Assembly: GCA_964577565.1 (NCBI GenBank)
Contig: CAZNZL010000002.1
Span: forward strand, 88,650 to 152,649
DNA: 64,000 nucleotides
Direction: 5' to 3'
Source of the DNA: an uncultured Candidatus Saccharibacteria bacterium
GTDB lineage: Bacteria; Patescibacteriota; Saccharimonadia; Saccharimonadales; JAGQNJ01
In this document: positions 22,671 through 42,330 of the stretch, in pieces
How positions within the stretch are numbered: position 1 is the first letter of the stretch
Layout: the number at the start of each line of letters is the position of its first letter
Notes under the pieces: model-generated
Database searches by the model: none
The model's input: the letters and a program-made list of their open reading frames with translations, nothing else
Told to the model about the DNA's origin: nothing
Made by a program: the position numbers and the translations under genes

Positions 22671-22675
22671 TAGTT

Positions 22676-23767: not shown

Positions 23768-23842
23768 GTAAATAAACTTGAAAAACGCTACCGTCTTGTA
23801 GTACAGTGAAGGCAAATAGAATATGAAAGGAATCTCTCTATA

Positions 23843-26511: not shown

Positions 26512-27027
26512 AACTTTGTTTGCTCTAAGAATGTAGTGTTGTTCCAAATGGCAGTTGGGACACAGCAGCTTTAAATTATTTGGATCATTGTTTGTCCTGT
26601 CTCTGTTAATATGGTGAATGTGTAATATATCCACCCTATTATAACCACATAATTCACACATATTTCCTCGAACTTTAATGATTCTTGCGCGAATCGCTTT
26701 TTGTGTTTCTAGTTGATCATATGGACGTTCAACTTTGTATTTCATACCCGCTCTATTTTTGTTTGAGCACTCTCTACTACAAGTCTTCTTGTTTAAGCCA
26801 GCTAGAAATGGTTTATTACAAATAATGCACGGTTTCTCTTTCCTGCATGATTTTCCATAACATGCCATACTACAAAAAACCCTACCTTTGCTATTTTTTA
26901 TCTCTACAGGTCTTTTGTATATTGGTTTGGCACAAAAAATACACTCAATATTTGGTTTCCTGATATAACGTTCGCTCACTAAGTCAGTATGCCAGGTTTT
27001 TAATGTGCGGAGCGGGAGGGATGACAA
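26497..27027 (-). CDS. HNH endonuclease (His-Me finger) with Cys-rich zinc-binding modules
   Basis: C-terminal HIHHINRDRTNNDPNNLKLLCPNCHLEQH is the HNH motif, and multiple CxxC pairs lie upstream. The last ~5 codons run into the 5' end of tRNA-Ser(TGA), so the true stop and expression are uncertain. Confidence 0.7.
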   Translation of the reverse strand: MSSLPLRTLKTWHTDLVSERYIRKPNIECIFCAKPIYKRPVEIKNSKGRVFCSMACYGKSCRKEKPCIICNKPFLAGLNKKTCSRECSNKNRAGMKYKVERPYDQLETQKAIRARIIKVRGNMCELCGYNRVDILHIHHINRDRTNNDPNNLKLLCPNCHLEQHYILRANKVGGVA

Positions 27028-27177
27028 CGTCTACAGCCATGCTCTCCGTCAACTGACGGATGCGCGTGGCTTTGATGAGCGCACCACTCGCTCACCATCG
27101 GCTCCGCCGCTGACCGCGAGGAACCGTATCCTACCACATCATTATTTTTACAATGACCTGCGGTCATTTCAAAATAT

Positions 27178-27270
27178 TGGCGGAGAGGGAGGGATTCGAA
27201 CCCTCGCGGGAGATTGCTCCCCCCTAACGATTTAGCAAACCGTCCCCTTCAGCCACTTGGGTACCTCTCC
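27178..27270 (-). tRNA. tRNA-Ser (anticodon GCT), class II
   Basis: Reverse complement GGAGAGGTACCCAAGTGGCTGAAGGGGACGGTTTGCTAAATCGTT...long arm...GGTTCGAATCCCTCCCTCTCCGCCA. Confidence 0.85.
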
Positions 27271-28969: not shown

Positions 28970-30358
28970 TTATCGCAGTTTTACTGGTACTTCTGTCGGG
29001 TAGATGCCATTCATACAGGCCATACATAGCTTACCAGCCATGGCGCTTAGGGCTCGTTGCAAGTTGCTTTCGGTCAGAAAATCAATGGAGTCAACCCCTA
29101 ACTCATTTTTCATGCCTTCACGATCCAAACGATTCGCAAGCAGATCAGCAGGGTTACCGGTATCCATACCATAAAAACACGGCCATTTATATGGAGGAGA
29201 AGATATTTTTAAATGTACTTCACTTGCCCCTGCTGCTCGTAACATGCCTACGAAGGCCTTCATAGTGGTGCCCCGAACAATTGAATCGTCAACTACGACG
29301 AGTCGCTTATCTGCAATAATGCTGCTTAAAGGATTTAGCTTTAGTCTGACCGCTGAATCTCGTTCCATTTGATCTTCTTTAATAAAGGTGCGGGTTATAT
29401 ACCGGTTTTTTTCTATACCCAGTTCAAACGGAATACCACTAGCTTGGGCAAAGCCTAAGCCGGCGTACGTGCCTGAGTCGGGGACGCCAAGCACCATATC
29501 TGCATCAGGGATGTCTTGCTCTGCTAATAGGCGTCCCATCTCTTTGCGAGCTGAAGCAACGCTAATTTCGCTAATCTCAGAACTTGGTCGGGCAAAATAG
29601 ACATATTCGAAAGCACACGTTTTTTGATCGCTTTCGGCGTACATGTCTGACCAAACACCGGCTGGCCCGATAGAGATAATCTCCCCTGGTAGAATTTGTC
29701 GGTCGTGAGTTGCACCAACTTGATTTAAAGCTGCCGTTTCACTGGCTACTACATACCCTCGACCATCCTTATATACGCCTATTTCAAGCGGACGAAAACC
29801 ATGACGGTCTCTAAAGGCAATTAACCTGTCTTCAGTCATGACAACTACCGAATAGGCGCCATCCGTACGCGCCGTCACCCGAGCAATCGCTGCCTCTAGT
29901 TCCTCATCTTCTTTCCATTCGCAAGCTATCTCATTTACCAACCAGTCGGTATCGGTGCCAAAAGGATTATGCTCAAGTTCTATGTGCCCATTGTGTGCCA
30001 AAGCAAAATGACGGCCATCATTCTGGTTGTGGTAGATGGGTTGAGCCGCTTCAAAGCCAGATCCTTTTGTAGTGCCGTATCTGGTGTGAGAAATGGCGAT
30101 TTTACCTTCTTGCACAAACCCATTACGTACGTGCTTGGTCATCACTTCAGATACAAGTCCGCAGCCTTTCGCGCCGCTAATGCCCTCCTCTTCTGATGCG
30201 ACCATAAAACCAGCTGCATCCTGGCCACGGTGTTGCAATGCCTCAGCACCTAAATAGGCAATTTTAACGACATCTTCACCAGGAGCGTATACCCCAAATA
30301 CGCCGCACGCCTCGCGTGGCTTATCTGCTTCGTAGTCTGGCAGCAAGAGTTCGCCCAT
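28970..30358 (-). CDS. purF: Amidophosphoribosyltransferase (glutamine-PRPP amidotransferase)
   Basis: N-terminal nucleophile context (CGVFGVYAP), Ntn glutaminase domain, and a C-terminal PRTase motif (LVVVDDSIVRGTT). Confidence 0.8.
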   Translation of the reverse strand: MGELLLPDYEADKPREACGVFGVYAPGEDVVKIAYLGAEALQHRGQDAAGFMVASEEEGISGAKGCGLVSEVMTKHVRNGFVQEGKIAISHTRYGTTKGSGFEAAQPIYHNQNDGRHFALAHNGHIELEHNPFGTDTDWLVNEIACEWKEDEELEAAIARVTARTDGAYSVVVMTEDRLIAFRDRHGFRPLEIGVYKDGRGYVVASETAALNQVGATHDRQILPGEIISIGPAGVWSDMYAESDQKTCAFEYVYFARPSSEISEISVASARKEMGRLLAEQDIPDADMVLGVPDSGTYAGLGFAQASGIPFELGIEKNRYITRTFIKEDQMERDSAVRLKLNPLSSIIADKRLVVVDDSIVRGTTMKAFVGMLRAAGASEVHLKISSPPYKWPCFYGMDTGNPADLLANRLDREGMKNELGVDSIDFLTESNLQRALSAMAGKLCMACMNGIYPTEVPVKLR

Positions 30359-30471: not shown

Positions 30472-32136
30472 TTAAAGGAAGAAGCGACCAGAGCGTGAAA
30501 GAAAATTAAACTTGGTTTTCTGTAGGGCGACCGTTGATTCTGACGTGCACCCGTAGTTCAGCTGGATAGAACGTCGGCTTGCGGAGCCGGAGGTCACAGG
30601 TTCGAATCCTGTCGGGTGTACCATATCGCTAATTTGAGTCGTTTTTGAACGGCTCATTTTTACTTTTAAAGAGTAAATCTCACTAACTTTAGGGGTGTAA
30701 ACTTTTTCGGCTGACTCAAACATTACTCTGTCTTTAAACAACAATTGTTTACACTCCCAGAATGTTGTACCCTGTAACGTCCACCAGTTTTGTCTTATAT
30801 GCTCGGCAAAGTCGATAGCAAACTTGGAGAACTCTATAAAATCTTCATCAACACTACTGGCTTGTACTATCTGTTTCCCAACATCTTCTATCTCCAGTTT
30901 TATCCTATCAATCTCAGGCTTTATATCCTCAGCTAGGTCAGGATTGAGGCTTAGACTTAGCACCAAGCTGCTTTTCTTTGACAGTAGTTCGTCCTTAAGG
31001 TTTCTCAGGTTCTTGGCTCGTTCTAAGCGGTAAACTTCTTCCTCTTTCCATACAAATTCAAGGGCGGATTTAAGGTCCGCCCTGGTATCGTCCGTCATCT
31101 CTAAATCGTCTAGAACATCGTTGATAGCCTTGTGCATTGTGTCTCGTGGGTAAGCCTTTTTGCACACCCTACAATGATAGTCGTTCCGCACCCAGCCTTT
31201 ACCGTTTTTGTGTACGCCGCCAGTAAATCTGCCCTCGTGTTTAGCATCTAAGCAATTGGCGTGATTAATAATGTTCTTTAAGGGAAACTCGGGGTTAAAC
31301 TGTTTCTTGCGTGTCTTCTTACGACCAGAAACAATTGCAACATTACGTTCGTATTCTTCGGGACTTATCATAGCCTCGCGTAGGCCTTTAGCTTCGGGCC
31401 AACCCTCTTTGATGAATATCCTGCCACAGTAATATGAGTCCAGCACAATAAGGTGAAAACGCTGCATATCTATTTTATTGCCTTGTGCAGTAGTGAATCC
31501 GCTGTCAAGCAGCCATCTCAGGGCTTCTGCTTCGGTCATAGCAAGCCTAGATATAGCTTTAAGTGCCGTTTGTAGCAATTTAAAACGGTTGCCTCTATCG
31601 TCTCGAACGTGAAGTCCTGCAACAGTGCCTTTCCTATAACCTAGATGTGGGTAGAACGGATAATAGCCATCAGCAACACGTTCTTTCATCTTGGTTGTAA
31701 CCGTAAGTATGCGTTCTTCGTTTTCTACTTCTGCATCATAGCTACCACGAGCCAATTCATACGACGCTTCGGCGGTATCGCCGTTGTATTTATGCTGGGA
31801 TGGGTCGCAGAAGATTAGCTTAACACCAAGCTGCTTAAACAAAACCTTAAAGTAGAACACCATATCAAGCTCACGCATAAAACGGCTTACCTTATCAACG
31901 AGTAAAAATTGTATGCCTTTGTTGTGCTTGCAGTAGGACAGGGCTTCTAGTAAGTCTTTCCGCCTCAGGTTTTTACCCTTTTTGCTAGAGGTTGCCATAG
32001 CCCACTCGTGAACAATTTCGGCTTCTAACTCATCAGCCATCTTGTTTACGCTAGATTGCTGTTGCTTCAAACTGTGATTGTTATCTTTTTGCTTCTTAGA
32101 TGAAACTCGCCTTATGGCGATTGCCTTTGCTTTCAT
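30472..32136 (-). CDS. Large serine recombinase (resolvase catalytic domain + recombinase domain + zinc ribbon), probable integrase of a tRNA-Arg-linked element
   Basis: N-terminal AIAIRRVSSKKQ...SLKQQ and LLVDKVSRFMREL...GVKLIF match the resolvase catalytic domain. CRVCKKAY is a zinc-ribbon. The C-terminal ~50 codons read through the tRNA-Arg in antisense (TGFEPVTSGS), so the annotated C-terminus may be artificially extended. Confidence 0.7.
   Translation of the reverse strand: MKAKAIAIRRVSSKKQKDNNHSLKQQQSSVNKMADELEAEIVHEWAMATSSKKGKNLRRKDLLEALSYCKHNKGIQFLLVDKVSRFMRELDMVFYFKVLFKQLGVKLIFCDPSQHKYNGDTAEASYELARGSYDAEVENEERILTVTTKMKERVADGYYPFYPHLGYRKGTVAGLHVRDDRGNRFKLLQTALKAISRLAMTEAEALRWLLDSGFTTAQGNKIDMQRFHLIVLDSYYCGRIFIKEGWPEAKGLREAMISPEEYERNVAIVSGRKKTRKKQFNPEFPLKNIINHANCLDAKHEGRFTGGVHKNGKGWVRNDYHCRVCKKAYPRDTMHKAINDVLDDLEMTDDTRADLKSALEFVWKEEEVYRLERAKNLRNLKDELLSKKSSLVLSLSLNPDLAEDIKPEIDRIKLEIEDVGKQIVQASSVDEDFIEFSKFAIDFAEHIRQNWWTLQGTTFWECKQLLFKDRVMFESAEKVYTPKVSEIYSLKVKMSRSKTTQISDMVHPTGFEPVTSGSASRRSIQLNYGCTSESTVALQKTKFNFLSRSGRFFL
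30547..30623 (+). tRNA. tRNA-Arg (anticodon read as GCG)
   Basis: GCACCCGTAGTTCAGCTGGATAGAACGTCGGCTTGCGGAGCCGGAGGTCACAGGTTCGAATCCTGTCGGGTGTACCA. The anticodon loop TTGCGGA gives GCG by my hand fold, which should be verified. Confidence 0.75.
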
Positions 32137-32744: not shown

Positions 32745-33164
32745 ATGGTTGAGTTGTTTAATACTCCTTTGAGTTCGCCTGTTTACATAGGGCTTCTCGT
32801 TGTTTACTTTATTTGTGAATCAATATCAACGTTTGATACCAGAATCATACAGGCTAAGAAAAACGGATTTCTAAGAGAAGATGAAGCATTTGTCCCTCAA
32901 TGGACAGGCATATTTGCAATTCTTGGCTGGCTTTCTTTTCTTGGTCTGATACTCCTCAACTGGAAAATTGCGATAGCTGTCTTTATCATTAAGTTCATTC
33001 TAAAAGTTGCACCTGTGCTAGAAAATATCGGTGCGTTACTGCTACTTCCTGTAGTTGGTAAAGAAACTGCTTCAGCGGTTAATGTTATGAGTAGAGAACA
33101 GAATAAGGCCGCCAAGTCATTGAAAGCAATGTCCAAAGCGGCTAAAGACAAAAGAGCACCTTAG
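32745..33164 (+). CDS. Small membrane protein, hypothetical (element cargo)
   Basis: Three hydrophobic helices (VYIGLLVVYFICESIS; IFAILGWLSFLGLILLNW; IAVFIIKFILKV). Confidence 0.4.
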   Translation: MVELFNTPLSSPVYIGLLVVYFICESISTFDTRIIQAKKNGFLREDEAFVPQWTGIFAILGWLSFLGLILLNWKIAIAVFIIKFILKVAPVLENIGALLLLPVVGKETASAVNVMSREQNKAAKSLKAMSKAAKDKRAP

Positions 33165-33391
33165 ACTTCATAAATCTGTTTGTATTCAAAGATACGTCAA
33201 TAATTTGGGTGTATGCCTGCAAAATGGCCTAGGTGGCTTGGATTATTTAAATAATCCTGTAAGGTCGTCTAAGGAACTACGAGCTTCAATTTCTATCTGT
33301 TAAATCAGTGATTTTAATGAAAGCAAAGCACTGGTTTAACGACGCCTCTGTGAGCTATTTTGAGCGTGTTTGACAGGTTTTAGCTGCTTAG

Positions 33392-34561
33392 TTGTTAATA
33401 TGTATTTATGAGGGAGCTACTTTAGTGCAACGCGAGTATAGCGTAAACGATTCAACGTACGGACATTTTATGTTCAAAGGTATAAATGTTCTTGAACATA
33501 ATGTAGACGAAGAATTCAATAACATTTATCATACGCTTGCATATTCAGTTTGGGCCAATATCCCTGGGGATACGGGCAGATTGTTTTCTAACGATTTTGT
33601 TGCTAAGAGTGTGGACTATTTTTCGACTAGGACAGATAATGGCCAAGCAGTTTCTGACGGTGATAAATATATTGAAAATCTAACGATTATTCCCAACAGG
33701 TTCAAGGATGCTGGTAATGTAAAAGCTAGTTTTATATCTTGGCTGAAAATTCTTGAGCTTCTAAAAAATATTGAAGACAGATCTGGCAGCAAAATTCATA
33801 AAGGTACTGCGTTCTATTTTGCCGCTGGCGATGCAATTGAATCAAATGATTTTGAGTCCGGCATGATTATGATGCATCTGGCATTGAACGAAGACATTGC
33901 AAATAATCCAGACTGGGAAAGTACACCTGCACACGCATTTATGACAGTAAACCCTGAGAATGTCGGGCAATATCACAAGCCCCTCGTAGATGAAATGTCT
34001 AACTTAATAAAGAGACGACTAACCGAAGACCAAAAGAGTTATAAAAATTCTAGAAATGGCAATCTTGTTTATGATGATTTTAGGTCAAAATTTCTAAACA
34101 ACACAAACAAGGTCCAAACTTCAGCCAGATACTATTTTGTGTATAGCCTGCTTCGATTCTGGCACATGCGAAAAATTCATAAAGCACGTGTAACTGATGA
34201 CGTAATAGCTCCTTTGGTTTTTGGTAATTTGGTTGGTTCACTAACTCTTGTTGTTGAAACCTTATTGAGGGGAATTGTTCCTGCACCAACTAGGCCGTCG
34301 ATGGCTACAATTCTGCAATCGTTAAACATGGGAATTGATATTGGTTCACTCCAAGCAGAGACTGAAGCAAATGGATTTGACGCAACAATCAATTCTCTTA
34401 TTAGCGACGATTCAATAGAAAGTGACTTCAAAATTGCTTACCTTTGCAGAAACCAGGCCTTTCATGTATTGGAAAATGAGAACGTATACAACCAGCATTA
34501 TATTGAAATCACTCAGTCAATTTTTAATTGTATATTTTATACAGTCGAGAACCATCATTAA
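33392..34561 (+). CDS. Hypothetical protein (389 aa), element cargo
   Basis: Long ORF with no motif I recognize. Confidence 0.4.
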   Translation: MLICIYEGATLVQREYSVNDSTYGHFMFKGINVLEHNVDEEFNNIYHTLAYSVWANIPGDTGRLFSNDFVAKSVDYFSTRTDNGQAVSDGDKYIENLTIIPNRFKDAGNVKASFISWLKILELLKNIEDRSGSKIHKGTAFYFAAGDAIESNDFESGMIMMHLALNEDIANNPDWESTPAHAFMTVNPENVGQYHKPLVDEMSNLIKRRLTEDQKSYKNSRNGNLVYDDFRSKFLNNTNKVQTSARYYFVYSLLRFWHMRKIHKARVTDDVIAPLVFGNLVGSLTLVVETLLRGIVPAPTRPSMATILQSLNMGIDIGSLQAETEANGFDATINSLISDDSIESDFKIAYLCRNQAFHVLENENVYNQHYIEITQSIFNCIFYTVENHH

Positions 34562-35484
34562 GGAAAAGTATGGCAAGGCCAAACAAGAAACAGCATAAAG
34601 TTCCGAAGTCATACATGGAGCCATTTACAGACAAAAATGGCCTTGTATGGGTCGCAGATAAGAATCTAAGGCTCTATCAGGAAAAGCCTAAAAATATTTT
34701 GACTGAGAACGATTACTACACAGTTCGATTTCCTAGTGGTGGCGGAACATTGGCAATTGAAACTAAGTTTTTGGGTGGGATTGAGGCAAGCTATGCGGCA
34801 ATTTATAAAAACAAAATATCTAAGCATGAACTGTTGTCTGACGAAGAAAGGGCGATAGTTGCTATCTTTATTGCTTCAATGCTGGAACGAAGCCCACGCA
34901 GGCGAGAGGCAATCCAAGATATGTTTGACCAGGTAAAGAATATAACGGAAAAGATGCGAGCATCAGTAGCTGCTATGACACCTGAGCAAAGAAAAGTATT
35001 TGAGAGTCAGTCAAAACTAATTGGTGGCAATCCAGATAATTCAATCCCAGCTGATGAATTCTTAAAAGCAGGTGAAGATGTTGGTTCATTCCATAGTTCT
35101 GGAATACCAGAAAGCGTAGCAGTTACTGCACCACTAATTTATGAAATGAAATGGGCGTTTTTGATTCGACCCAAGGAATCAGAACCATTTATAACTTCAG
35201 ATAGTCCATGCACCTTTGATATTCCAACTTTACCGCCAAAATCAATATTCGGAGGGCTGGGCCATAAAGATGTTGAGGTAAGTATGGCAATGTCGCCCGA
35301 TATTGCGATTTTGTGCGGCTATCAAATGGAACAAGATTGGGGCTATATGCCCGCCAAAGAGTCAGAAGTACAGGAAATTAACAGAAGAATAAGGAGGAGG
35401 AGCGAGACGCTTGTAAGCAACGACAAACTACTCCTAGAAAGACAAATTGAGAGAATCAAGTCACTTATTAATCAAAAACCTTAA
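34528..35484 (+). CDS. Hypothetical protein, possibly DUF4238-like
   Basis: The N-terminus KKQHKVPKSYMEPFTD resembles the HxVPxxYLxxF start of DUF4238 proteins, which are common in defence and mobile islands. This is a weak call. Confidence 0.35.
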   Translation: MYILYSREPSLRKSMARPNKKQHKVPKSYMEPFTDKNGLVWVADKNLRLYQEKPKNILTENDYYTVRFPSGGGTLAIETKFLGGIEASYAAIYKNKISKHELLSDEERAIVAIFIASMLERSPRRREAIQDMFDQVKNITEKMRASVAAMTPEQRKVFESQSKLIGGNPDNSIPADEFLKAGEDVGSFHSSGIPESVAVTAPLIYEMKWAFLIRPKESEPFITSDSPCTFDIPTLPPKSIFGGLGHKDVEVSMAMSPDIAILCGYQMEQDWGYMPAKESEVQEINRRIRRRSETLVSNDKLLLERQIERIKSLINQKP

Positions 35485-35690
35485 CTGCATTATTTAAATA
35501 ATTTTGCCTTTAATCAGGGTTGCTTAGGGTTAATAGGTGTTTAGGTCTTTATAGACTAAGGGTTCTATGCCCCCCGGGCTATAACTACTATACTTACCGG
35601 TGCTCTTATATGAGTGATACTCACCAGCGATGATACTTCGCCATCTCTGTAACTCTAGGGTAAGCGGGTGTAAATTTTCACACAGGTAGA

Positions 35691-35733
35691 GTACCACGAA
35701 AGGAGCCAGGTTTTATCCTGGCTTTTTTCGTGG
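35691..35733. repeat. Hairpin module A, copy 1 (GTACCACGAAAGGAGCCAGG-ttttat-CCTGGCTTTTTTCGTGG)
   Basis: Seen directly in the sequence. A near-identical copy lies at 37818-37860. Confidence 0.7.
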
Positions 35734-35853
35734 CTGTTCTGACATGATTCTGGTTCTGTGACAGAGATTTTGCGTAAGCAAAATATCGTAGTCACGGGTT
35801 CGCTCATGAGGAACTATCGCATCCGCCAGCTGGCGGAGAGAAAGTGACGAAAT

Positions 35854-35878
35854 GTTGTCATCCTGCCTTGGTGTACCA
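35854..35878. mobile_element. attR-like degenerate copy of the tRNA-Arg 3' end
   Basis: GTTGTCATCCTGCCTTGGTGTACCA compared with tRNA-Arg 3' end GGTTCGAATCCTGTCGGGTGTACCA is about 17/20 identical with one indel over the 3'-most 20 nt, ending in the identical GGTGTACCA. Confidence 0.5.
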
Positions 35879-35965
35879 GAGTGGAATTACAGATAGGGAT
35901 TGAAATCGTTTTCAATCTCTTTTTTGTTGGATATTTCTTAACACCTTGGAATGAGTTTGAATCCC
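35871..35965 (+). repeat. Cassette-boundary module B, copy 1 (GTGTACCA core + terminator-like hairpin + promoter-like segment)
   Basis: GTGTACCAgagtggaattACAGATAGgGATTGAAatcgtTTTCAATCTCTTTTTTGTTGGAtATTTCTTAACACCTTgGAAT...GAATCCC. The hairpin at 35898-35917 is followed by a T-run. Confidence 0.7.
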
Positions 35966-36021
35966 GTTTGGTGTTTTGCTTGTGCTTGGGATTGAAGTCA
36001 CAATCACCTAAGATTAGATTT

Positions 36022-36402
36022 ATGGCGCTGGAAGATTTATCAGGATTAGTTCAAAGGCTACGTGAAGAAGGCATCAGAACCGAAAGGCTTGATGACTGGC
36101 AGAATAAAGGTCTGCTTGGGATAATGCTCGGTACAGAAAGCGGAGCTTACTATATCGTGGAGCCGGTAGGTAATCCAAGTTTAGTCACAAGGCTTTCCGA
36201 AGCACCCCCATATTATGGTGAATACAGAATGCCTGCTACAGAGGCGATGGTGCGAAGACAAGGAAATCCCGATAGAAGATTGGAATTAGGAAATCCTATG
36301 AATATATTAGGACTTTCAAGAAAAGGTCCAGAGTTTGACCCTGACTCACTATATACAACCACTCCCCTAGTTGAAATTACTTACCTGGAAGCTGCCGGCT
36401 AA
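36022..36402 (+). CDS. Hypothetical cassette protein
   Basis: The ORF track starts at 35881, but residues 1-47 are translated repeat sequence. Start reassigned to MALEDLSG at 36022. The stop TAA at 36400-36402 abuts module B copy 2. Confidence 0.45.
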   Translation: MALEDLSGLVQRLREEGIRTERLDDWQNKGLLGIMLGTESGAYYIVEPVGNPSLVTRLSEAPPYYGEYRMPATEAMVRRQGNPDRRLELGNPMNILGLSRKGPEFDPDSLYTTTPLVEITYLEAAG

Positions 36403-36522
36403 AATTGTTTGAACTTCGTGTACTACCGTGTACCATTTGGTAATTACAGATAGAGATTGAAGTCGCTTTCAATCTCTTTTTAGTTGGACAATTTTAAACA
36501 CCTTAGAATAAGTATGAATCCC
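36403..36522 (+). repeat. Cassette-boundary module B, copy 2
   Basis: aaTTGTTTGAACTTCGTGTACTACCGTGTACCAtttggtaattACAGATAGAGATTGAAGTCGCTTTCAATCTCTTTTTAGTTGGACAATTTTAAACACCTTAGAATaagtaTGAATCCC. It begins immediately after the stop codon. The hairpin at 36455-36474 is followed by a T-run. Confidence 0.75.
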
Positions 36523-36589
36523 ATATATCATCTTGCTTATGCTTGCGCTGCTCGACCCTCATCGTTACTATAGATTTAAGGAGATTTCT

Positions 36590-36967
36590 ATGTCTGGTGA
36601 AAAAATTGGTCAAGAAGCTGATTTGTTAGCTCAGAAAGAACTGTGGGCGCAGTCTATGGCAGACCTAGTTACTACTGAAAGAGGGATAGATGAGGAAACG
36701 GCACTTTCAGCAGCTCGCTGGGCTTGCTTGTGGGTGGATGACTATAAAACTCTAATGGCTGCGCAACCACCAGCTAATTTAGATGAAGTCAAAGCTCACC
36801 TCGAAACCGCAAGAGTAAGCTCACTAGAGAGAAGCACTGGTTTGACGCGTTACCCTACGGGAGTACCTACATTGCGCGCGATTATTGCAGCACAAGATGT
36901 ATTTTGCTGGGCTTTTGGGGATGAAGCAGAAGATGTCAGGCAGCTGCTTGATACTCAGCCAGAATAG
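36590..36967 (+). CDS. Hypothetical cassette protein
   Basis: The ORF track starts at 36533 inside the repeat. Start reassigned to the ATG at 36590, which is preceded by AAGGAG (MSGEKIGQEADLLAQKE...). The stop TAG at 36965-36967 abuts module B copy 3. Confidence 0.5.
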   Translation: MSGEKIGQEADLLAQKELWAQSMADLVTTERGIDEETALSAARWACLWVDDYKTLMAAQPPANLDEVKAHLETARVSSLERSTGLTRYPTGVPTLRAIIAAQDVFCWAFGDEAEDVRQLLDTQPE

Positions 36968-37080
36968 TTTGAACTTCGTGTACTACCGTGTACCATAGTG
37001 AAACTACAGATAGAGATGAAGCACATTTCAGTTTCTTTTTTGATGGATATTTCTTAACACCTTAGAATCCATTTGAACCC
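36968..37080 (+). repeat. Cassette-boundary module B, copy 3 (hairpin partly degenerate)
   Basis: TTTGAACTTCGTGTACTACCGTGTACCAtagtgaaactACAGATAGAGATGAAGcacaTTTCAgTTTCTTTTTTGATGGATATTTCTTAACACCTTAGAATccaTTTGAACCC. Confidence 0.75.
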
Positions 37081-37135
37081 TGTTAAGTGTTTTTCATTAC
37101 CTTATTGCATTTTGTAATGTATATGTGCTATAGTA

Positions 37136-37396
37136 ATGAATATGAAGAATACTATTACTATCACCAGCAAGGGGCAGGCAACCATTCCAGCTTCTTATCG
37201 TCGCAAACTAGGGGTAGGAGCAAACGGAGGCACTCTAGATATACGTTTTGATGAATCTAGGGGCGAACTTGTTATAGCAAAGCCATTAAGCGTAGAGGAG
37301 TTAAGCGAAAAATTAAGTGGTTATATAAAATCAGGGACAAAGCCTCTGGTTGATGTTGATGCTTATTACCAGAAGAATCGTGACGGTCGCAAATAA
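37136..37396 (+). CDS. AbrB/MazE/SpoVT-family antitoxin (VapB-like)
   Basis: TITSKGQATIPASYRRKLGV is a swapped-hairpin beta-barrel motif. The stop overlaps the start of the PIN gene (ATGA). Confidence 0.65.
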   Translation: MNMKNTITITSKGQATIPASYRRKLGVGANGGTLDIRFDESRGELVIAKPLSVEELSEKLSGYIKSGTKPLVDVDAYYQKNRDGRK

Positions 37397-37800
37397 TGAG
37401 ATTCGGCGGCTCATTAGACACGAATGCATTACTGAGGTTACTCTTGAATGACGTGGCCGAACAGCACAAGGCCATAAAAAAATTACTACGTGAGGCGAAG
37501 GGCCAGCTTGCGGTTGCCGACATTGCGATAATTGAATTGGTGTTCGTGCTTGAAAGATACTACGGCTTTTCCCGTCAACAAGTCAGCGAAGCTGTCACCG
37601 GACTTATGCTACTCCGAGAAATAAACTGCAACCGCCCGCTATTTGAAAAAACGCTACCCATTTATATAAGCCATTCTGCACTATCTTTTGAAGATTGCTG
37701 CCTGAGCACATACGCGATACTCAATCAGGCTGAACCCTTATGGACCTTTGATAAAAAGCTGGCTACTCAAGCGAACAGCGCCAAGCTAATTGCCGTTTGA
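37396..37800 (+). CDS. PIN-domain toxin (VapC-like)
   Basis: N-terminal acidic residue in LDTNALLRLL and further conserved acidic residues. The stop TGA lies inside the conserved GTTTGAACTT repeat start. Confidence 0.65.
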   Translation: MRFGGSLDTNALLRLLLNDVAEQHKAIKKLLREAKGQLAVADIAIIELVFVLERYYGFSRQQVSEAVTGLMLLREINCNRPLFEKTLPIYISHSALSFEDCCLSTYAILNQAEPLWTFDKKLATQANSAKLIAV

Positions 37801-37860
37801 ACTTCCCTTACTACCGTGTACCACGAAAGGAGCCAAGTATTATCATGGCTTTCTCGTGGT
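37801..37860. repeat. GTGTACCA junction + hairpin module A, copy 2
   Basis: ACTTCCCTTACTACCGTGTACCACGAAAGGAGCCAAGtattatcATGGCTTTCTCGTGG. Direct repeat of 35691-35733, terminating the cassette array. Confidence 0.7.
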
Positions 37861-37888
37861 TTCTACAACCGGGTTTGTATCAGGATTG

Positions 37889-38560
37889 TTACAATGTCTC
37901 AACCAATTTAACTAACTTTCGGGTTCTTGCCAGGTTTCTAATTACAGTCCTTTTGTGGTTGAGCCGTTTATGCAGAATCACTTTGTGCTTTGGTCTGGCC
38001 TCAATTATTGCGTTGAATGTTCTTATTGCGCCGTCAAAAGGAACTATCTCATCGGAGTGACTAGATATCAACAGTACCCTCTTATTTTTATAGTTTGCAA
38101 GATCAGGATATTGAAGCCGTGACCATGCGCTTCTAAGCGTCTCTTCGTTATAGTTGGTTTTTTTGAAGTATTCGCGAATATGCGGCATGCGCCAAACAGC
38201 TTGGGCAACGTCACCCCCAGTATTCATTACACACCAATCAACTTCAGGTATTCTTGCCATACAGTTGTACCCAATAAATGCACCTAAACTACTGCCAAAA
38301 ATGCCTACAGTAGTGTTTGTGCTTAAACCGCTGATCTTGCTCTGCAACGAGCTACAGACTTGGTCAATAGCTGAAATTAATCCATTTGGGTCCCCAGCTG
38401 ACCAAATGCTTTCCTTGAACTCATAGGCTTCTACGGAGTAGCCCAGTCTCACCAATGATTGTATTGGTAGCCTACACCGAGAGATAGTTACGCCATACGG
38501 GCAAAGAAAGAAGATGAATTTATCTTTATTGTTGCCAAATGCTTTACTCTTGAATAACAC
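37889..38560 (-). CDS. Alpha/beta hydrolase fold esterase/lipase-like protein
   Basis: GxSxG nucleophile elbow GIFGSSLGAFIGYN, about 220 aa. Confidence 0.5.
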   Translation of the reverse strand: MLFKSKAFGNNKDKFIFFLCPYGVTISRCRLPIQSLVRLGYSVEAYEFKESIWSAGDPNGLISAIDQVCSSLQSKISGLSTNTTVGIFGSSLGAFIGYNCMARIPEVDWCVMNTGGDVAQAVWRMPHIREYFKKTNYNEETLRSAWSRLQYPDLANYKNKRVLLISSHSDEIVPFDGAIRTFNAIIEARPKHKVILHKRLNHKRTVIRNLARTRKLVKLVETL

Positions 38561-38927
38561 AGTTAGATTATACAGGGCGAGACTATGAAGCAGTATTAGT
38601 TATGCTAGTTCTTGCTTTGTTAAAAATACTGTACCGCGGGCAAGTCCAAGACACGCTGTCAAGGGTGCTACCGTTGATAATGTTTCTCGGGCGCTGTGTA
38701 AGTTTTCAAGTCACCCACAACCAGAAACATTAAGACTCAGACCACTGCTCGCTTCAGTTGAAGTACCGCCCATTAATGACGAAGCTCGTCAAATTCTACA
38801 GGAATTAGTTCTGAGATAATCCCTCATCTTGAAGATCAATTACGTGAGCAAGACAGAAGTCGCATAAAATAATAAGCTATATTTTGCTCATGCTTGCAAT
38901 TGATACGGATTATGCTAGGGTTTAAGT

Positions 38928-39503
38928 ATGAAACCGAATGCCTCAGAGTTTACAGGTATAACGCCTCTTTCAGAAGGCCATCCAAATATCGATGCCTCTC
39001 TTCAGGCGAGTAATGATTTGCTGGACCCAACACAAATGTTTGACTTAGGCAATATTTTACCGGAAGAAATGGTACATATTCATACTGCAGAAGGTAGCTT
39101 GACTTTACTTCATCCACCAGAGTCAACCTGGGGGGCCGGCAGTAGCTGCATCACACATGTAGTAGAGAGTACTATTAAAGGAATCAAAGCAGATGACGTC
39201 ATTCGTCTAGACGGCTGCTCGGCTGGCATAACTACCTATGCACAAACTGGGTTTATTGGTCAGTATGGCCGTTTAATGTACTCTAAATTTCCGAAGCGAC
39301 TACTGCCAGATGAAGACGTTGCATATTTGCAAGGTCTTGAGCCTGAAGAAAGGAAGAGGGCGCTAGATACCTTAGGGTTTATTTCTATTGAAGACGGCAC
39401 GTACTATACAGAAAGATGGGACGGTACGTATCATTTTACGGCTGAAATTCTTAGAGCTGAGCGAGAAAAACCTGGTGAAGACCCAGAGCCAATTTTCGAA
39501 TGA
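38928..39503 (+). CDS. Hypothetical protein (191 aa)
   Basis: ORF with the promoter-like motif TTGCTCATGCTTGCAA upstream. No recognizable domain. Confidence 0.4.
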   Translation: MKPNASEFTGITPLSEGHPNIDASLQASNDLLDPTQMFDLGNILPEEMVHIHTAEGSLTLLHPPESTWGAGSSCITHVVESTIKGIKADDVIRLDGCSAGITTYAQTGFIGQYGRLMYSKFPKRLLPDEDVAYLQGLEPEERKRALDTLGFISIEDGTYYTERWDGTYHFTAEILRAEREKPGEDPEPIFE

Positions 39504-39680
39504 GAACACCTTCAATCGTTACCAGCAACTTAGGTAAGCTTAGAGAGTATGTAGCGCTTTTACTAAAAGATAGTGAAAAAGCTTTACGATTTTTTGGCTC
39601 AACCCTCCTTGCCCCTTCGTAAAAGCGTAGGTTAAATCGCCTATGCTTGCAAAATATGAGGTGAGTAGTAGAATTGTCGT

Positions 39681-40238
39681 ATGTCGGGAACTCTCACAAC
39701 TTCTTATCAAGCAACCTCTGAGAAGCTCCCACTACTGGGCGAAGAAGCTATCCTGGAAACGTTATATGAAGTTGGTCTTCCAGAAGAATTGTATATTGTT
39801 CTTGGTGGTGCCAACATGGTTTTAAGGGGTATCAAGCCAACCACGCAAGATGTGGATTTACTTGTGTCTGAAGAGGGCTTTGCTCTACTAAGAGAGCGAC
39901 CTGCATCCACATTAAAGCGCCCGCCCGCTCGAGCAGTGGCGTTAGGTGCGGCAAACCCTACGGTATGGGTACACGATAACGAAACGCCGATGCCAATTAG
40001 TGCTACCGAATCACTTGGTGATGGATTTTATCCGATGACATTTTGGGAATTCAAAGGCCAGTCTGAAGCGGTTCGAGGTATTCCATGTCTAAATCTTGAC
40101 AATGTTATCGAGTCAAAAAAGGCACTCCAGCGGCCTAAAGATAAAGAAGATCTTATGCGCATCGGTACTTTTTTGGGTGTAGAAATTCAACTCCCGATTC
40201 CGACTGTTGCGTTGCCACATATTGAGTCCACTTTTTAG
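39681..40238 (+). CDS. Minimal nucleotidyltransferase-fold protein (Pol-beta-like NTase superfamily)
   Basis: LGGANMVLRGIKPTTQDVDLLVS matches the hG[GS]-x9-13-DhD signature of the NTase fold. Confidence 0.45.
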   Translation: MSGTLTTSYQATSEKLPLLGEEAILETLYEVGLPEELYIVLGGANMVLRGIKPTTQDVDLLVSEEGFALLRERPASTLKRPPARAVALGAANPTVWVHDNETPMPISATESLGDGFYPMTFWEFKGQSEAVRGIPCLNLDNVIESKKALQRPKDKEDLMRIGTFLGVEIQLPIPTVALPHIESTF

Positions 40239-40302
40239 TCTACGTGGTTTTACACAATTGCCTTTGCTTGAATAAAGGCTGCAAGCGTAGATAATATAAT
40301 CT

Positions 40303-40590
40303 GTGGCTGGAGAAGTATTACTGAGTTATAACGATTTAACGACCTTACGTATAGAGTCTCGCGAGGCGCTAGCTAGGTTAGGCATTAGTTCTAACCCTGG
40401 CTTTACAAATCGGAATATTATTGATGGTTTAAGTCGTGCTATAGGGGTAGGTTCGGAGTTTCCTGAAAACATGGAGTGGTCTGAATATTCAGGTGAAATT
40501 TTTAGAGATTGTTTGGGAGAAATCCTAGGTTTAGAATTACCACCAAGTGCTTCAGAAGTAGTTGATGGGCTTCGGAGGGTGACACGTTAA
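40303..40590 (+). CDS. Hypothetical small protein (95 aa)
   Basis: ORF only. Confidence 0.3.
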   Translation: MAGEVLLSYNDLTTLRIESREALARLGISSNPGFTNRNIIDGLSRAIGVGSEFPENMEWSEYSGEIFRDCLGEILGLELPPSASEVVDGLRRVTR

Positions 40591-40638
40591 GATCTTTTGC
40601 TGATATCTCAGCAACTCCGCTTATGCTATTCTTAAAAC

Positions 40639-41235
40639 ATGAAACATAATCAAAAAGGCTTCGGCGCGGTAGAAGTAATAATTGTAATTATAATTCTTGG
40701 GTTGGTTGGCGGTGTGGGCTGGTATGTCTTCTCAAAAAATAAAGACTCGTCCGAACCATCATCCAGCACTCAAGTAGAAGAACAATCTGAAGAAGCCGAG
40801 CAAAACGCTGAACCAGAAGCGAAGGTCATCGATAACGAACGCTTTACCCTAACCTTGCCAAATGGCTTTGAAGAATCAGCAGAGAGAATATTTACCTACA
40901 CCGCTAAGCCCGGAAAAACCTATTCATATGCAAATGCCACAACCGGCGATTATTTTGAACTTAACTTCGAGATTGCAGCCAGCGGCATCAGCTCCGACTA
41001 TACGTGGTTTTTTACCGAGCAAAACAATAAGATTACGCTTGAAAAAGCCTCAACCACTGTATGTTCGAGTGCGAATGACGAGATGTGTACATCCGCTGGC
41101 AATAACCGGCTCGATAGTTACATTGGCAGTAAAACGCAAGAAGATTACTACTTTACGTTTGGCAATACAAAAACCGAATCCCCTGCCGATGTAACGTTTG
41201 TAGATGAATTTATAGAAAACCTAACAATCAAATAA
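40639..41235 (+). CDS. Type IV pilin-like protein (class III signal peptide)
   Basis: MKHNQKG|FGAVEVIIVIIILGLVGGVGWYVF has a basic leader ending in Gly, Glu at +5, and a hydrophobic helix. This is a prepilin-type N-terminus. Confidence 0.5.
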   Translation: MKHNQKGFGAVEVIIVIIILGLVGGVGWYVFSKNKDSSEPSSSTQVEEQSEEAEQNAEPEAKVIDNERFTLTLPNGFEESAERIFTYTAKPGKTYSYANATTGDYFELNFEIAASGISSDYTWFFTEQNNKITLEKASTTVCSSANDEMCTSAGNNRLDSYIGSKTQEDYYFTFGNTKTESPADVTFVDEFIENLTIK

Positions 41236-41401
41236 AAAGTCGCTTTGGTAACACCGAAGAATCACTAAAGCCGTGGTGAGGTGTTTACGGTTTAACTTGT
41301 ACGCAAGGCACCTGGTAGAGCGTTTGGTAGATCTCACAGAACCGCGAACTAAGTGATCAATTAACGTGCTGTCTTAAGCCAGGCTGGTATATAATTTTAT
41401 T

Positions 41402-41695
41402 ATGGAAGACGGGCCAGAAGTACTACCACAAGAAACAGAAGAACGACCTCTCATGTCCGAGGAGCAGCTCAGAGAAGCAGTAGAGCATTTAGCTAGGGCA
41501 CCACGGCGCACTCCAGACGGCATGAGTGAGATTGTACTAAGATCCTGGAAATTGCCCGACCCAATGCTTAGTCCAGAAGATCAAAGACTGGAAAAAAGAG
41601 TAAAAGCAGAAGTGTTTAGAAAATTTGGTTGGGACAAGCGTCGTTCGGAGCGGCGCACGACTGAACAATCTATTCCCAACCCGGAAGATCTTTAG
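41402..41695 (+). CDS. Hypothetical small charged protein (97 aa)
   Basis: ORF only. Confidence 0.3.
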   Translation: MEDGPEVLPQETEERPLMSEEQLREAVEHLARAPRRTPDGMSEIVLRSWKLPDPMLSPEDQRLEKRVKAEVFRKFGWDKRRSERRTTEQSIPNPEDL

Positions 41696-41709
41696 AACTA
41701 TTTTTTGCA

Positions 41710-42330
41710 TTGGAAACATTTTGGGTGTATAAAAAAGCCATGGCAAATGGTGAGCAGCATGTAGCAGAATTTAGAGACGTTGTTGAAACTGTACTTGAAA
41801 AACACAGAAGACTACAAGCAGCGGCAGATGCCCAGTCGTCGCTTCGTCGGATACGTCCAAATAATACGGGTTTACGTGCGGCTGGGTTGGTGTTTGCGCA
41901 CATCTTGCCCAGACAAGGGCGAAGCTCGGTTTTTGGATTACGACCCAAAGAGCTGTGGGGTGTTGCTGACCAATACGAGTATAAATTCAAAAACCATTCC
42001 GGAAGAATGGCGCTTCTATCATCAATCGAACTGCCCGGCACACTGGTTAGGCGTGTTGAATTTTCAGGATCAGCTCCGCTCCTTGGCATTAGCACGGAAA
42101 GAGAATTAGACAAAGAAGAAGCTGCACTGGCAGTAACTTGGATTAAGTCACCTCATTTGTATCCAGAAATTCATAACCAGCTGGCTTCACTCTTACCCAC
42201 AGAAGTTGAAGCTACGGGGGCAGAATTTGCTAAACAGAACGAAGCTAGAGATCAGTATCAAAGAGATATGGAAGCAGTACGACGAGCATCGATACCAGGG
42301 CCTGATTTTTACAATCGTACTATCGGCTAG
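41710..42330 (+). CDS. Hypothetical protein (206 aa)
   Basis: ORF only. Confidence 0.35.
   Translation: METFWVYKKAMANGEQHVAEFRDVVETVLEKHRRLQAAADAQSSLRRIRPNNTGLRAAGLVFAHILPRQGRSSVFGLRPKELWGVADQYEYKFKNHSGRMALLSSIELPGTLVRRVEFSGSAPLLGISTERELDKEEAALAVTWIKSPHLYPEIHNQLASLLPTEVEATGAEFAKQNEARDQYQRDMEAVRRASIPGPDFYNRTIG

Follow-up and report, generated by a model that had tools for sequence, protein, structure and literature searches.

A probable family of recombinase-less integrative cassettes at tRNA-Arg genes of Saccharibacteria

What kind of element would string small, unrelated genes together between copies of the end of a tRNA gene? The question is raised by a stretch of 64,000 nucleotides (64 kb; hereafter the window) from an uncultured member of the Saccharibacteria, in which a preliminary description had seen an integron-like array of gene cassettes that share a tRNA-Arg att core and lack a tyrosine integrase. 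Self-comparison of the DNA and a reading of its ORFs confirmed that the repeated module, the ORFs and a second repeat, module A, are present as claimed. Saccharibacterial genomes measure about 1 Mb and contain few recognised mobile elements, and the gain of accessory genes in this lineage is poorly understood. The reading that we favour, and consider probable, is that three miniature integrative cassettes, none with a recombinase gene, are arrayed here, and that they belong to a family that is mobile within the Saccharibacteria and takes the final 8 bp (GTGTACCA) of tRNA-Arg genes as its insertion site.

Anatomy of the array

The core GTGTACCA occurs five times in the 64-kb window, always on the plus strand, where 1.27 copies are expected, and none of 100 shuffled sequences reached five. 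It forms the last 8 nt of the tRNA-Arg 3' end and corresponds, as had been proposed, to the tRNA-Arg att core. One copy (30616-30623) ends a functional tRNA-Arg gene with anticodon gcg (30547-30623, plus strand; found by ARAGORN, Rfam tRNA 67.7 bits), and the other four, starting at 35871, 36428, 36988 and 37816, mark junctions that delimit three cassettes, 557, 560 and 828 bp in length. Every such junction consists of a T-loop-like right arm of 21 nt (C) and the core, which together end one cassette, followed by a left arm of about 120 nt (B), which starts the next. Cassette 1 (35879-36435, plus strand; B-arm profile E = 4.6e-29) is composed of a B arm at about 35879-35990, a hypothetical gene at 36022-36402, a C arm at 36407-36427 and the core at 36428-36435. 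Cassette 2 (36436-36995, plus strand; B-arm profile E = 1e-24) has the same parts, with the B arm at about 36436-36547, a hypothetical gene at 36590-36967, the C arm at 36967-36987 and the core at 36988-36995. In cassette 3 (36996-37823, plus strand; B-arm profile E = 1.9e-23) a B arm with a degenerate hairpin (about 36996-37105) precedes an antitoxin gene and a PIN toxin gene, and the C arm (37795-37815) and core (37816-37823) close the unit. All three cassettes match the C-arm pattern, which has three matches in the window at up to three mismatches where 0.02 would be expected.

In self-comparison the junctions appear as a module of about 118 nt, present in three copies at 35871, 36428 and 36987 that lie 557 and 559 nt apart; the second and third copies are 80% and 60% identical to the first without gaps, and a 29-nt sequence, GTTTGAACTTCGTGTACTACCGTGTACCA, is also found three times in the window (identities of 100, 100 and 90%). 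The view that one such module follows each cassette was right about the conserved repeat but not about its nature, as what repeats is a pair of arms joined at the core, the C arm of the preceding cassette and the B arm of the following one. The first copy (35871) precedes cassette 1, and on its left side stands not a C arm but a tRNA-Arg 3'-end relic split in the T-loop (35791-35878, plus strand), recognised by reading the sequence and by comparison with the tRNA and with units at loci L121 and L008. The relic is made up of GTCACGGGTTCG (35791-35802), a 57-nt insert, and ATCCTGCCTTGGTGTACCA (35860-35878), whose end is core copy m0. The two copies of module A, at 35691-35725 and 37818-37852, are 91% identical over 35 nt. 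The first of them belongs to a segment (35689-35733, plus strand) that opens with a degenerate core, GAGTACCA (35689-35696), and continues into a strong terminator-like hairpin, A (-36.3 kcal/mol, z = -6.2). The second copy forms a terminator-like hairpin, A' (37824-37860, plus strand; -18.6 kcal/mol), directly after the last core, and may be the original downstream flank of the tRNA-Arg gene. A CRISPR array was considered for these repeats and rejected, as the Rfam CRISPR-DR2 match was sub-threshold (24.6 bits against a cut-off of 37, E = 0.73) and the repeats lie 557-828 nt apart with protein-coding genes between them, where repeats of 24-48 nt with spacers of 25-70 nt are required.

The B arm contains a conserved 16-mer, a terminator hairpin, promoter-like elements and an embedded tRNA 3'-end relic. 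The hairpin, which 16 nt separate from the core on the 3' side, leads into a T-run and scores as terminator-like; it is paired in 95% of cells, with G-U wobbles and three compensatory pairs. Its position beside the core, the T-run and the tolerance of G-U pairs thus argue for an RNA terminator. The 16 nt from the core to the hairpin are nearly invariant despite their position outside the stem, and this 16-mer adjoining the core may represent a recombinase half-site. All B arms hold the promoter-like TTGnTG-17-TAGAAT and TTGCTNNTGCTTG, and from these predicted elements each cassette appears to carry its own promoter. Around the shared core itself, no dyad symmetry was found beyond that of shuffled sequences.

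The ORFs of cassettes 1 and 2, of 126 aa and 125 aa, are not paralogues (BLASTP E = 0.97), and neither has a family match. Cassette 3 does carry the toxin-antitoxin pair that had been proposed, a type II, VapBC-like system in which a small AbrB/MazE-fold antitoxin gene (37136-37396; MazE_antitoxin E = 1e-4, AbrB E = 2e-5) is followed by a PIN-domain toxin gene (37396-37800; PIN E = 1.3e-9), the stop codon of the former overlapping the start codon of the latter. Among about 14 cargo genes from the window and from other loci no mutual similarity was detected. Conserved boundaries and unrelated cargo bear out the description of the units as discrete cassettes.

Cassettes in other Saccharibacteria

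When 185,579 species genomes were scanned for core-N10-ACAGATAGRGAT, 11 loci were returned, all of them in Saccharibacteria, and ten of the 11 are real copies of the module. In ten other species the B arm lies directly behind genuine tRNA-Arg genes with the anticodons gcg, tcg and ccg, and a C arm with GTGTACCA follows 0.6-0.9 kb downstream, before unrelated terminator hairpins. Behind four kinds of tRNA-Arg gene in these organisms, different genes lie between these same arms, and arrays of at least two units occur at loci L002, L006, L007 and L009, one of the L006 cassettes ending in a C arm with CTCCACCA, a tmRNA-type end. The search of related genomes that had been set as a check thus revealed that cassette content varies between genomes. 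The nearest database relative of the source organism shows only 74% identity in a flanking protein, and neither an excised circle, nor an empty site in a close relative, nor presence and absence between strains was seen.

The cargo found elsewhere includes genes for MazG-like, DUF805, DUF1801, nucleotidyltransferase, YafQ/ParE-type toxin, pilin-like and hypothetical proteins; a 94-aa partner ORF upstream of the YafQ/ParE-type toxin has no Pfam match. The single orientation noted in the window is a tendency of the family, most cargo genes being co-oriented with the tRNA-Arg gene, but at least two (at L004 and L006) are reversed. Homologues of the cassette 2 gene, 60-73% identical, are located directly behind tRNA-Arg(ccg), tRNA-Arg(tct) and tRNA-Gln genes in other organisms, so that the same cargo family stands behind four different tRNA genes, and at L123 the homologue is followed by a C-like arm. 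None of the approximately 17 B...C units contains a recombinase-sized ORF.

Within the window array the B arms are 68-78% identical to each other and up to 84% identical to those of other species, and they are no closer to each other than to the B arms of other species. Across species whose flanking housekeeping protein has only 30-48% amino acid identity, B arms are 52-84% identical. C arms of different species share derived features at positions -21 to -1, which argues that they travel with the cassette and are not separately decayed tRNA ends. Short-read assemblies are broken by the repeated arms, and arrays are therefore probably under-represented in metagenome-assembled genomes.

Insertion and the candidate enzyme

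The layout of the junctions suggests how such arrays could be assembled. A circular cassette would carry the junction C-core-B, and a crossover within the core, between C-core-B and tRNA-core-terminator, would yield tRNA-core-B...C-core-terminator. Successive insertions would then generate the order tRNA|B, C|B, C|B, C|native terminator A'. The 11-bp hairpin and T-run of the B arm could serve as a replacement terminator for the tRNA or the upstream cassette, and the promoter-like elements would serve the cargo. The window array was probably first joined directly to tRNA-Arg(gcg) and later displaced 5.2 kb downstream by an island with a large serine recombinase (LSR) that entered the same tRNA gene. 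In this scheme the enzyme must act in trans.

The LSR of that island is encoded by an ORF of 554 aa that abuts the tRNA-Arg gene (30472-32136, minus strand; Pfam Resolvase E = 9e-13, residues 6-142). About the last 50 codons of the ORF run antisense through the tRNA, and the conserved protein probably ends near 30624. It has an N-terminal serine-recombinase domain with the catalytic motif IAIRRVSSKKQ, including the active-site serine, a Cys/His cluster (C-x4-H...C-x2-C) and a coiled-coil-like region that gives a weak SMC-type match; PF07508 was recorded only for its homologues P0017 and P0018, and a search of PDB sequences gave no match. There is weak similarity to CcrB and XisF, that to CcrB being N-terminal (E = 1e-5). 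An assignment as a Ccr orthologue, and of the island as an SCC element, was rejected, as the match to the CcrB model reaches 24 bits where 900 are required and the target is tRNA-Arg, not rlmH (orfX). The island also carries a 139-aa ORF, a 389-aa ORF and a gene for a DUF4238 protein (32745-35484, plus strand; Pfam DUF4238 E = 2e-34, PADLOC DUF4238-Pers E = 6e-6).

We regard an LSR of this neighbouring clade, which targets tRNA and tmRNA 3' ends, as the best candidate for the enzyme, a tentative assignment that falls somewhat short of being probable. The window LSR is 36% identical to one with the same placement at L008, and in both cases the LSR abuts tRNA-Arg and cassettes lie downstream; other LSR homologues abut tmRNA-like or tRNA-Met 3' ends. 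The T-loop-like motif is 5 bp further from the core in the C arms and in both LSR-island right ends than it is in the tRNA, and in the attP sites of LSRs the motif of the zinc-ribbon domain is offset in like manner relative to attB (PMC3783163). At eight of the ten cassette-bearing loci no LSR was encountered within the 4-8 kb of DNA examined, and no B or C modules were seen near the closest LSR homologues, which are about 50% identical. The reconstructed attP of the LSR islands has no obvious resemblance to C-core-B, and the B-arm profile found no match at the left ends of these islands. Since canonical LSRs do not join attP to attL, tandem insertion at a tRNA gene that is already occupied is awkward to explain by a strict LSR, and a shared 8-bp core is more typical of tyrosine recombinases.

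These points lead to the strongest alternative, in our view an unlikely one, that the cassettes are mobile but are moved by a trans-acting tyrosine recombinase, a host Xer-type enzyme or an integrase encoded elsewhere, with the 8-bp GTGTACCA as the overlap for strand exchange. Comparable cases are the Xer-dependent dif modules known from plasmids of Acinetobacter and the classical tRNA-targeting integrases. Such an enzyme reuses an occupied site in tandem easily, and an identical core of 6-8 bp at all junctions is typical of its overlap regions and is not needed by serine recombinases; the absence of LSRs from the DNA examined at most cassette loci also counts in its favour. The inverted core-type arms that would be expected around the core are nevertheless absent, and LSRs are the only recombinases seen at this tRNA end. 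As the preliminary description had held, no tyrosine integrase lies nearby. Pfam detected no such domain in ORFs of the 22.6-45.8 kb segment (a scan of those of 70 aa and more, other than a PurF-like ORF at 28970-30358 and a 76-aa ORF at 27005-27235), and none was apparent by eye elsewhere in the window.

It is less likely still that the units are a graveyard, that is, immobile decayed remnants of full-size, recombinase-bearing islands, with B and C arms as att scars, comparable to those ssrA islands of Dehalococcoides that lack an integrase. Degenerate cores occur (GAGTACCA at 35689, CTGTACCA in L006 and L009, GCGTACTA in L123), which means that part of the array may be fossil, and the degenerate B hairpin of cassette 3 fits the same picture. 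The split tRNA relic and the 182-nt units indicate repeated rearrangement at this site, and at L010 a unit of 3.5 kb with six genes ends in a C arm. Separate decay would not, however, leave the same 120-nt B and 21-nt C arms around some 14 unrelated single genes in ten species, and the arms have diverged far less than the host proteins. The units are all of a very small, compact format, and in several the stop codon directly meets the C arm; no B...C unit with a recombinase gene or pseudogene was found.

Spread mainly by natural transformation and homologous recombination, with the tRNA-Arg gene and the B and C arms as portable homology and no dedicated site-specific recombinase, we judge to be improbable. 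Saccharibacteria are reportedly naturally competent, and the arms offer 30-120 nt of homology on each side of a cassette. At L009 two B arms are identical over about 105 nt, as are the m1 and m2 C arms of the window over 29 nt, which suggests local gene conversion. Homologous recombination cannot account, though, for first insertions at four tRNA-Arg isoacceptors and at tRNA-Gln where the downstream flanks lack homology; it leaves the precise 8-bp core duplication at each boundary unexplained, and it sits poorly with the modest mutual identity of the window B arms. Scarcely credible, and already contradicted, is the counter-scenario that the preliminary description itself had named, in which ordinary intergenic terminator-promoter spacers were duplicated in place with paralogous genes and nothing is mobile: the B arm does hold a terminator-like hairpin and promoter-like hexamers, but the cargo genes are unrelated, B arms are as divergent within the array as between species, and the same arms, flanked by the duplicated tRNA 3' core, enclose unrelated genes in ten other species, behind four kinds of tRNA-Arg gene, as mobile cassettes would.

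Relation to known mobile elements

No published description of this mobile gene-capture system was found. It is similar to the tandem islands known from tRNA and tmRNA genes, and the kinds that come closest to it are the Dehalococcoides ssrA islands, the SCC/psiSCC composite islands and the CIMEs. As in islands at tRNA or tmRNA 3' ends, GTGTACCA marks both the tRNA end and each cassette boundary, in the window as in ten further species, and an LSR lies beside tRNA-Arg in the window and at L008 with other units free of a recombinase. The ssrA islands, with the LSR DsiB, are likewise inserted at the 3' end of a small stable-RNA gene, have a serine recombinase gene of about 540 aa on the reverse strand beside attL, and form tandem units with short direct repeats of the RNA 3' end between them; about half of these units lack an integration module and have been proposed to be cis-mobilizable (PMC3146451). 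A further link is that relatives of the window LSR abut a tmRNA-like 3' end. The units described here are nonetheless much smaller (0.56-0.9 kb with one or two genes, against 7-20 kb), share a terminator-promoter left arm of about 120 nt and a 21-nt right arm, target several isoacceptors of tRNA-Arg in a CPR bacterium, and have no DsiA, ParB or Mom-type module.

Staphylococcal SCC and psiSCC elements, moved by the LSRs CcrAB or CcrC, form tandem arrays with short direct repeats that include recombinase-less psiSCC mobilised in trans. They too are 'cassettes' inserted by an LSR at the 3' end of one conserved gene, but their target is rlmH (orfX), their units measure kilobases to tens of kilobases, and a shared terminator-promoter arm is lacking. 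A CIME typically arises by deletion from a specific ICE, whose tyrosine integrase it uses, whereas the present units are a large family of single-gene elements in which diverse cargo is set between standardised ends. The assembly of cassette arrays by a serine recombinase is not a new category, as SCC/psiSCC arrays and the ssrA islands are described precedents, and the analogy with CcrB has been drawn for the latter (PMC3146451).

The likeness to integrons lies in organisation: small, mostly one-gene units, diverse and largely uncharacterised cargo that includes toxin-antitoxin pairs, a mostly uniform orientation, a conserved site at each boundary, and variable arrays at a fixed platform. The array in the window, too, holds unrelated cargo, mostly in one orientation, with content that differs between genomes. 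At the level of mechanism the analogy does not hold. No IntI was found (only a Resolvase-domain protein and no Phage_integrase in the scanned ORFs of 22.6-45.8 kb, the remainder by eye), and no attC-like folded palindrome lies at the crossover core, the only hairpin being the RNA-type terminator 16 nt to its 3' side. The platform is a tRNA gene end, and each cassette has its own terminator and promoter-like elements and would not depend on a Pc promoter.

Standardised cassettes of 0.6-0.9 kb at tRNA-Arg genes would constitute a compact route of gene flow in Saccharibacteria, with toxin-antitoxin pairs, a nucleotidyltransferase, a pilin-like protein and many ORFans as its cargo. Should the neighbouring LSR prove to be the enzyme, the system would represent an independently evolved, integron-like platform for gene capture on a serine-recombinase chassis. 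Genetic tools for these bacteria, whose manipulation is very difficult, would then gain a natural landing site and a compact, well-defined att pair of about 45-50 bp. A bolder and rather doubtful proposal is that a true functional analogue of the integron exists in Saccharibacteria and perhaps in other CPR bacteria, in which an LSR specific for tRNA and tmRNA 3' ends captures, stacks and releases single-gene cassettes at tRNA-Arg genes, each with its own terminator and promoter; these ultra-small epibionts would thereby gain a plug-in pool of accessory genes.

The tycheposons of Prochlorococcus, a minority of which use an LSR, are multi-kilobase, integrase-bearing elements that often carry replication genes, and standardised single-gene cassettes with shared arms are not among the features described for them (bioRxiv 10.1101/2020.12.28.424599). 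They share with the window the setting of a streamlined genome, flexible genes beside tRNA genes, and partial tRNA copies left by successive insertions.

Core repeats and the two arms at each junction

The 8-nt core GTGTACCA, with which the tRNA-Arg(gcg) gene ends (30547-30623, plus strand; core copy at 30616), recurs at 35871, 36428, 36988 and 37816, that is, at the four junctions of the array. These five copies, all on the plus strand, compare with 1.27 expected in the 64-kb window, and five or more were obtained in none of 100 shuffles. Comparison of the window with itself revealed a repeat of about 118 nt to the right of the core (starts at 35871, 36428 and 36987) and a 29-nt repeat that has the core as its end (36407, 36967 and 37795), and the pattern of the sequence left of the core has three matches against 0.02 expected. 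The array is bracketed by hairpin A, a strongly folding, terminator-like structure at 35691, and by its copy A' at 37818, which is 91% identical over 35 nt. A repeated module between cassettes, a tRNA-Arg 3' end as its core and a pair of bracketing hairpins had all been noticed in a preliminary description of this DNA, and all are borne out. The description of the module as a single unit is not; the boundary sequence is conserved, but in the aligned junctions it resolves into two arms, one on either side of the core.

To the left of the core lies arm C (GTTTGAACTTCnnTTACTACC, 21 nt), which is similar to the T-loop region of a tRNA and starts at the stop codon of the cargo gene or no more than about 30 nt from it. 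To the right lies arm B, which opens with 2-3 variable nt and a nearly invariant GTGAAATTACAGATAG, continues with an 11-bp hairpin and T-run of terminator-like score and a predicted promoter-like element (TTGnTG-17-TAGAAT), also holds a second tRNA-3'-like stretch (GAGTTTGAATCCyGyTTGGTG), and has TTGCTNNTGCTTG as its last element. Across 14 copies 95% of cells in the B hairpin are paired; G-U wobbles occur and three changes are compensatory, a pattern indicating that the hairpin functions as RNA, on the plus strand. The TTGCTNNTGCTTG element occurs four times in the window (35976, 36533, 38884 and 43809) against 0.11 expected, in every case 40-55 nt upstream of a plus-strand start codon, one gene being outside the array, and it is probably a promoter -35 region of this organism. 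Along the array the junctions follow the order tRNA relic/B, C/B, C/B, C/A'. An E-value search of 29-42 kb against Rfam returned tRNA only and no other known RNA family.

Cargo and distribution among Saccharibacteria

Cassette 1 (35879-36435, 557 nt) carries a 126-aa ORF, cassette 2 (36436-36995, 560 nt) an unrelated 125-aa ORF (BLASTP E = 0.97), and cassette 3 (36996-37823, 828 nt) an AbrB/MazE-like antitoxin with a PIN toxin, all on the plus strand; the toxin-antitoxin cassette of the preliminary description is thus present. Cargo in other species includes a MazG-like protein, DUF805 and DUF1801 proteins, a nucleotidyltransferase, a pilin-like protein, hypothetical proteins, and a YafQ/ParE-type toxin preceded by a 94-aa partner ORF that has no Pfam match. 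About 14 such ORFs resemble neither each other nor the cargo of the window. The single orientation first proposed holds for most cargo, but at least two cargo genes (in loci L004 and L006) are on the opposite strand. Homologues of the cassette 2 protein number only three (60-73% identity), and all lie immediately 3' of a tRNA gene: behind tRNA-Arg(ccg) and followed by a C-like arm in L123, behind tRNA-Arg(tct) in L121 and L122, and behind tRNA-Gln in L124. Downstream of the array, at 38928-42330, are six small plus-strand ORFs, nearly all without a Pfam match, the exception being a pilin-like N_methyl protein (40639-41235) of the same type as a cassette cargo in L007; this stretch may be an older flexible region, and a search of it for arm C found none.

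When the pattern core-N10-ACAGATAGRGAT was scanned against one genome per species (185,579 species), 11 loci were recovered, all in Candidatus Saccharibacteria/Saccharimonadales MAGs. One (L001) was set aside as a chance match, so that the search of related genomes proposed at the outset places the module in ten further Saccharibacteria loci. Arm B lies directly 3' of a genuine tRNA-Arg gene in L002, L005 and L009 (gcg), L003 and L004 (tcg) and L006 (ccg); otherwise it follows a C arm. Arm C and GTGTACCA are found 0.6-0.9 kb 3' of arm B, where they precede an unrelated hairpin with a T-run, by its look the native terminator of the tRNA. This layout is the mark left when a small element enters between a tRNA and its terminator and duplicates the 8-bp core. 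Arrays of at least two units (L002, L007) or at least three (L006, L009) occur; they include units with a deviating left arm and degenerate cores (CTGTACCA). The cassette feature is real, and more general than a description from the one sequence could show.

Several observations concern the tRNA ends and assemblies themselves. One C arm in L006 (about 4395-4430, reverse-complement coordinates) is followed by CTCCACCA, a tmRNA/tRNA-type end, and not by GTGTACCA, which suggests that cassettes visit ssrA-type sites too or that there is recombination between arrays at different att sites. In another Saccharibacteria species (L106-L108) tRNA-Arg(gcg) has a different acceptor end, GGTACACCA and not GGTGTACCA, with a terminator directly after it and no cassette. 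Two contigs from independent read-set assemblies (L012 and L013; SRR7082976 and SRR7082966) match window 36433-40577 at 100% identity, and both break exactly within the repeated core; such arrays thus fragment short-read assemblies. A metagenome scan with the adjacent PurF protein for close relatives with or without cassettes gave 77 loci, all at 57% identity or less and with no module. The nearest relative of the species of the window that was reached through the flanking gene has 74% identity in the flanking protein, and flanking-gene searches from the loci of other species returned distant empty tRNA-Arg sites only. The B-arm and C-arm patterns had only chance matches within coding regions among IMG/VR viral contigs, and a plasmid search for the module had no match.

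Probable mobility of the cassettes and the neighbouring recombinase

B arms of different species are 52-84% identical, compared with 30-48% for a conserved flanking protein in the same genomes. Together with the unrelated cargo and the spread across tRNA genes, these identities point to cassettes that move horizontally and have standardised ends, and it is fairly probable that the cassettes are, or recently were, site-specifically mobile. A circular cassette with the order C-core-B would recombine inside GTGTACCA against the tRNA-core-terminator sequence; the body of the tRNA would stay as it was, with ACCA and a new terminator contributed by the cassette, the B-arm promoter would drive transcription of the cargo, later insertions would stack further units, and the recombinase would be supplied in trans.

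A candidate enzyme is encoded next to tRNA-Arg by a minus-strand ORF of 554 aa (30472-32136) with a Pfam Resolvase domain, a serine-recombinase catalytic motif, a Cys/His cluster and a coiled-coil-like region. The reading frame of this large serine recombinase (LSR) passes antisense through the entire tRNA-Arg gene (30472-30623). A 514-aa LSR of another species (L008; 36% identical) has the same position at tRNA-Arg, with a B...C cassette further 3'; homologues of about 50% and 42% identity adjoin a tmRNA-like 3' end (...CCAGCTCCACCA, then a terminator), and further LSRs in L102 adjoin tRNA-Met genes. All relatives examined (L008, L093, L095, L100, L102 and L125) end at or enter a stable-RNA 3' end, be it tRNA-Arg, tRNA-Met or tmRNA-like, with a terminator hairpin beyond, so that the clade appears to be specialised on such ends. 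DsiB of the Dehalococcoides ssrA islands likewise targets a stable-RNA 3' end and lies on the reverse strand beside attL (PMC3146451).

If the cassettes are mobile, an LSR of the neighbouring clade is the best, if tentative, candidate for the enzyme, and the link is circumstantial. LSR and cassettes occur together in two of the 11 loci, and one C arm in L006 leads into the tmRNA-type end. In C arms the start of a T-loop-like 9-mer is 21 nt from the core, against 16 nt in the tRNA, and each LSR island has its best match to the 9-mer at -21 in its right end; the comparison is a weak, post hoc one (5-7 of 9 matches). The zinc-ribbon-domain motif of serine integrases is offset by the same 5 bp between attP and attB (PMC3783163), a geometric hint of a link to the LSR. 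Against the link, the fetched DNA of most cassette loci contains no LSR, five of the closest LSR homologues, when inspected, had no modules nearby, and dyad symmetry at the core is no better than in shuffled sequences. Strict LSRs, moreover, do not take attL as a target. The idea that arm B is a remnant of the left end of an LSR island was also dropped, as an nhmmer profile that recovers all B arms, plus a new one in L006, misses every LSR-island end.

A tyrosine recombinase as the enzyme of mobile cassettes is unlikely: as first described, none was found by Pfam among the scanned ORFs at 22.6-45.8 kb, where a Resolvase-domain protein was. That the units are fossil scars of larger islands seems quite improbable. 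Exchange by transformation and homologous recombination, with the arms serving as homology, has a slim chance as the whole explanation, and would be compatible with site-specific mobility as a means of later shuffling. Plain spacers duplicated in place along with paralogous genes, the scenario named at the outset as fatal to a cassette system, can be dismissed almost entirely, since the 126-aa and 125-aa ORFs are unrelated and the B arms of the window (68-78% mutual identity) are no closer to each other than to those of other species (up to 84%). A CRISPR array was rejected. IS200/IS605-type single-strand (HUH) transposition, which came into question since every insertion lies 3' of a fixed sequence, was rejected for want of a sub-terminal hairpin at the right end.

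The likeness to integrons first suggested holds for the outcome only, as neither IntI (in the ORFs scanned at 22.6-45.8 kb) nor an attC-like site was found, and a shared Pc promoter is probably lacking, the cassettes having predicted promoter-like elements of their own. The array fits among tandem, partly recombinase-less islands at the ends of stable-RNA genes, namely the Dehalococcoides ssrA-GIs, CIMEs mobilised by accretion, SCC/psiSCC composite islands, and tycheposon islands flanked by tRNA. What sets it apart from all of these is its reduction to single genes with a conserved terminator-promoter arm, as well as its host lineage. No description of such cassettes in Saccharibacteria/Patescibacteria was found by full-text searches of the literature, the coverage of which was incomplete.

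Probable history of the locus, and adjacent genes

A tRNA-Arg 3' end survives as a relic on the left of the first core (35860-35878, ATCCTGCCTTGGTGTACCA), from which it follows that the array was probably once attached straight to tRNA-Arg, the arrangement still seen in L002 and L009. Afterwards the LSR island (30624 to about 35688 or 35790) would have inserted into the tRNA, supplying a new tRNA 3' end and terminator and displacing both the old end and the array. A unit of 182 nt (35697-35878) separates island and array: first hairpin A, next a spacer, last a tRNA-Arg 3' fragment, the T-loop of which is split by a 57-nt insert; a reading of 35800-35878 as a full-length degenerate tRNA was rejected. 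A homologous split unit lies behind tRNA-Arg(tct) in L121 (286-485), the two being 182-200 nt long with homologous inserts of 57-66 nt, and L008 has two tandem 182-nt units (5602-5965, reverse-complement coordinates) with a perfect 28-nt tRNA end.

The LSR island also carries a DUF4238 protein (34528-35484) that matches the PADLOC candidate defence family DUF4238-Pers (E = 6e-6), and DUF4238 and SHOCT genes adjoin an LSR homologue in another Saccharimonadales genome (L100-L102, about 12963-14114). Elsewhere in the window, an ORF with an HNH endonuclease domain (26497-27027, minus strand; Pfam HNH, E = 1.3e-4) lies between tRNA-Ser genes of a tRNA cluster, and small paralogous plus-strand ORFs at 22254-24259 (Pfam T4SS_pilin, four matched stretches, E = 1e-42) are located downstream of large T4SS-like genes that form a block at 8-21 kb.
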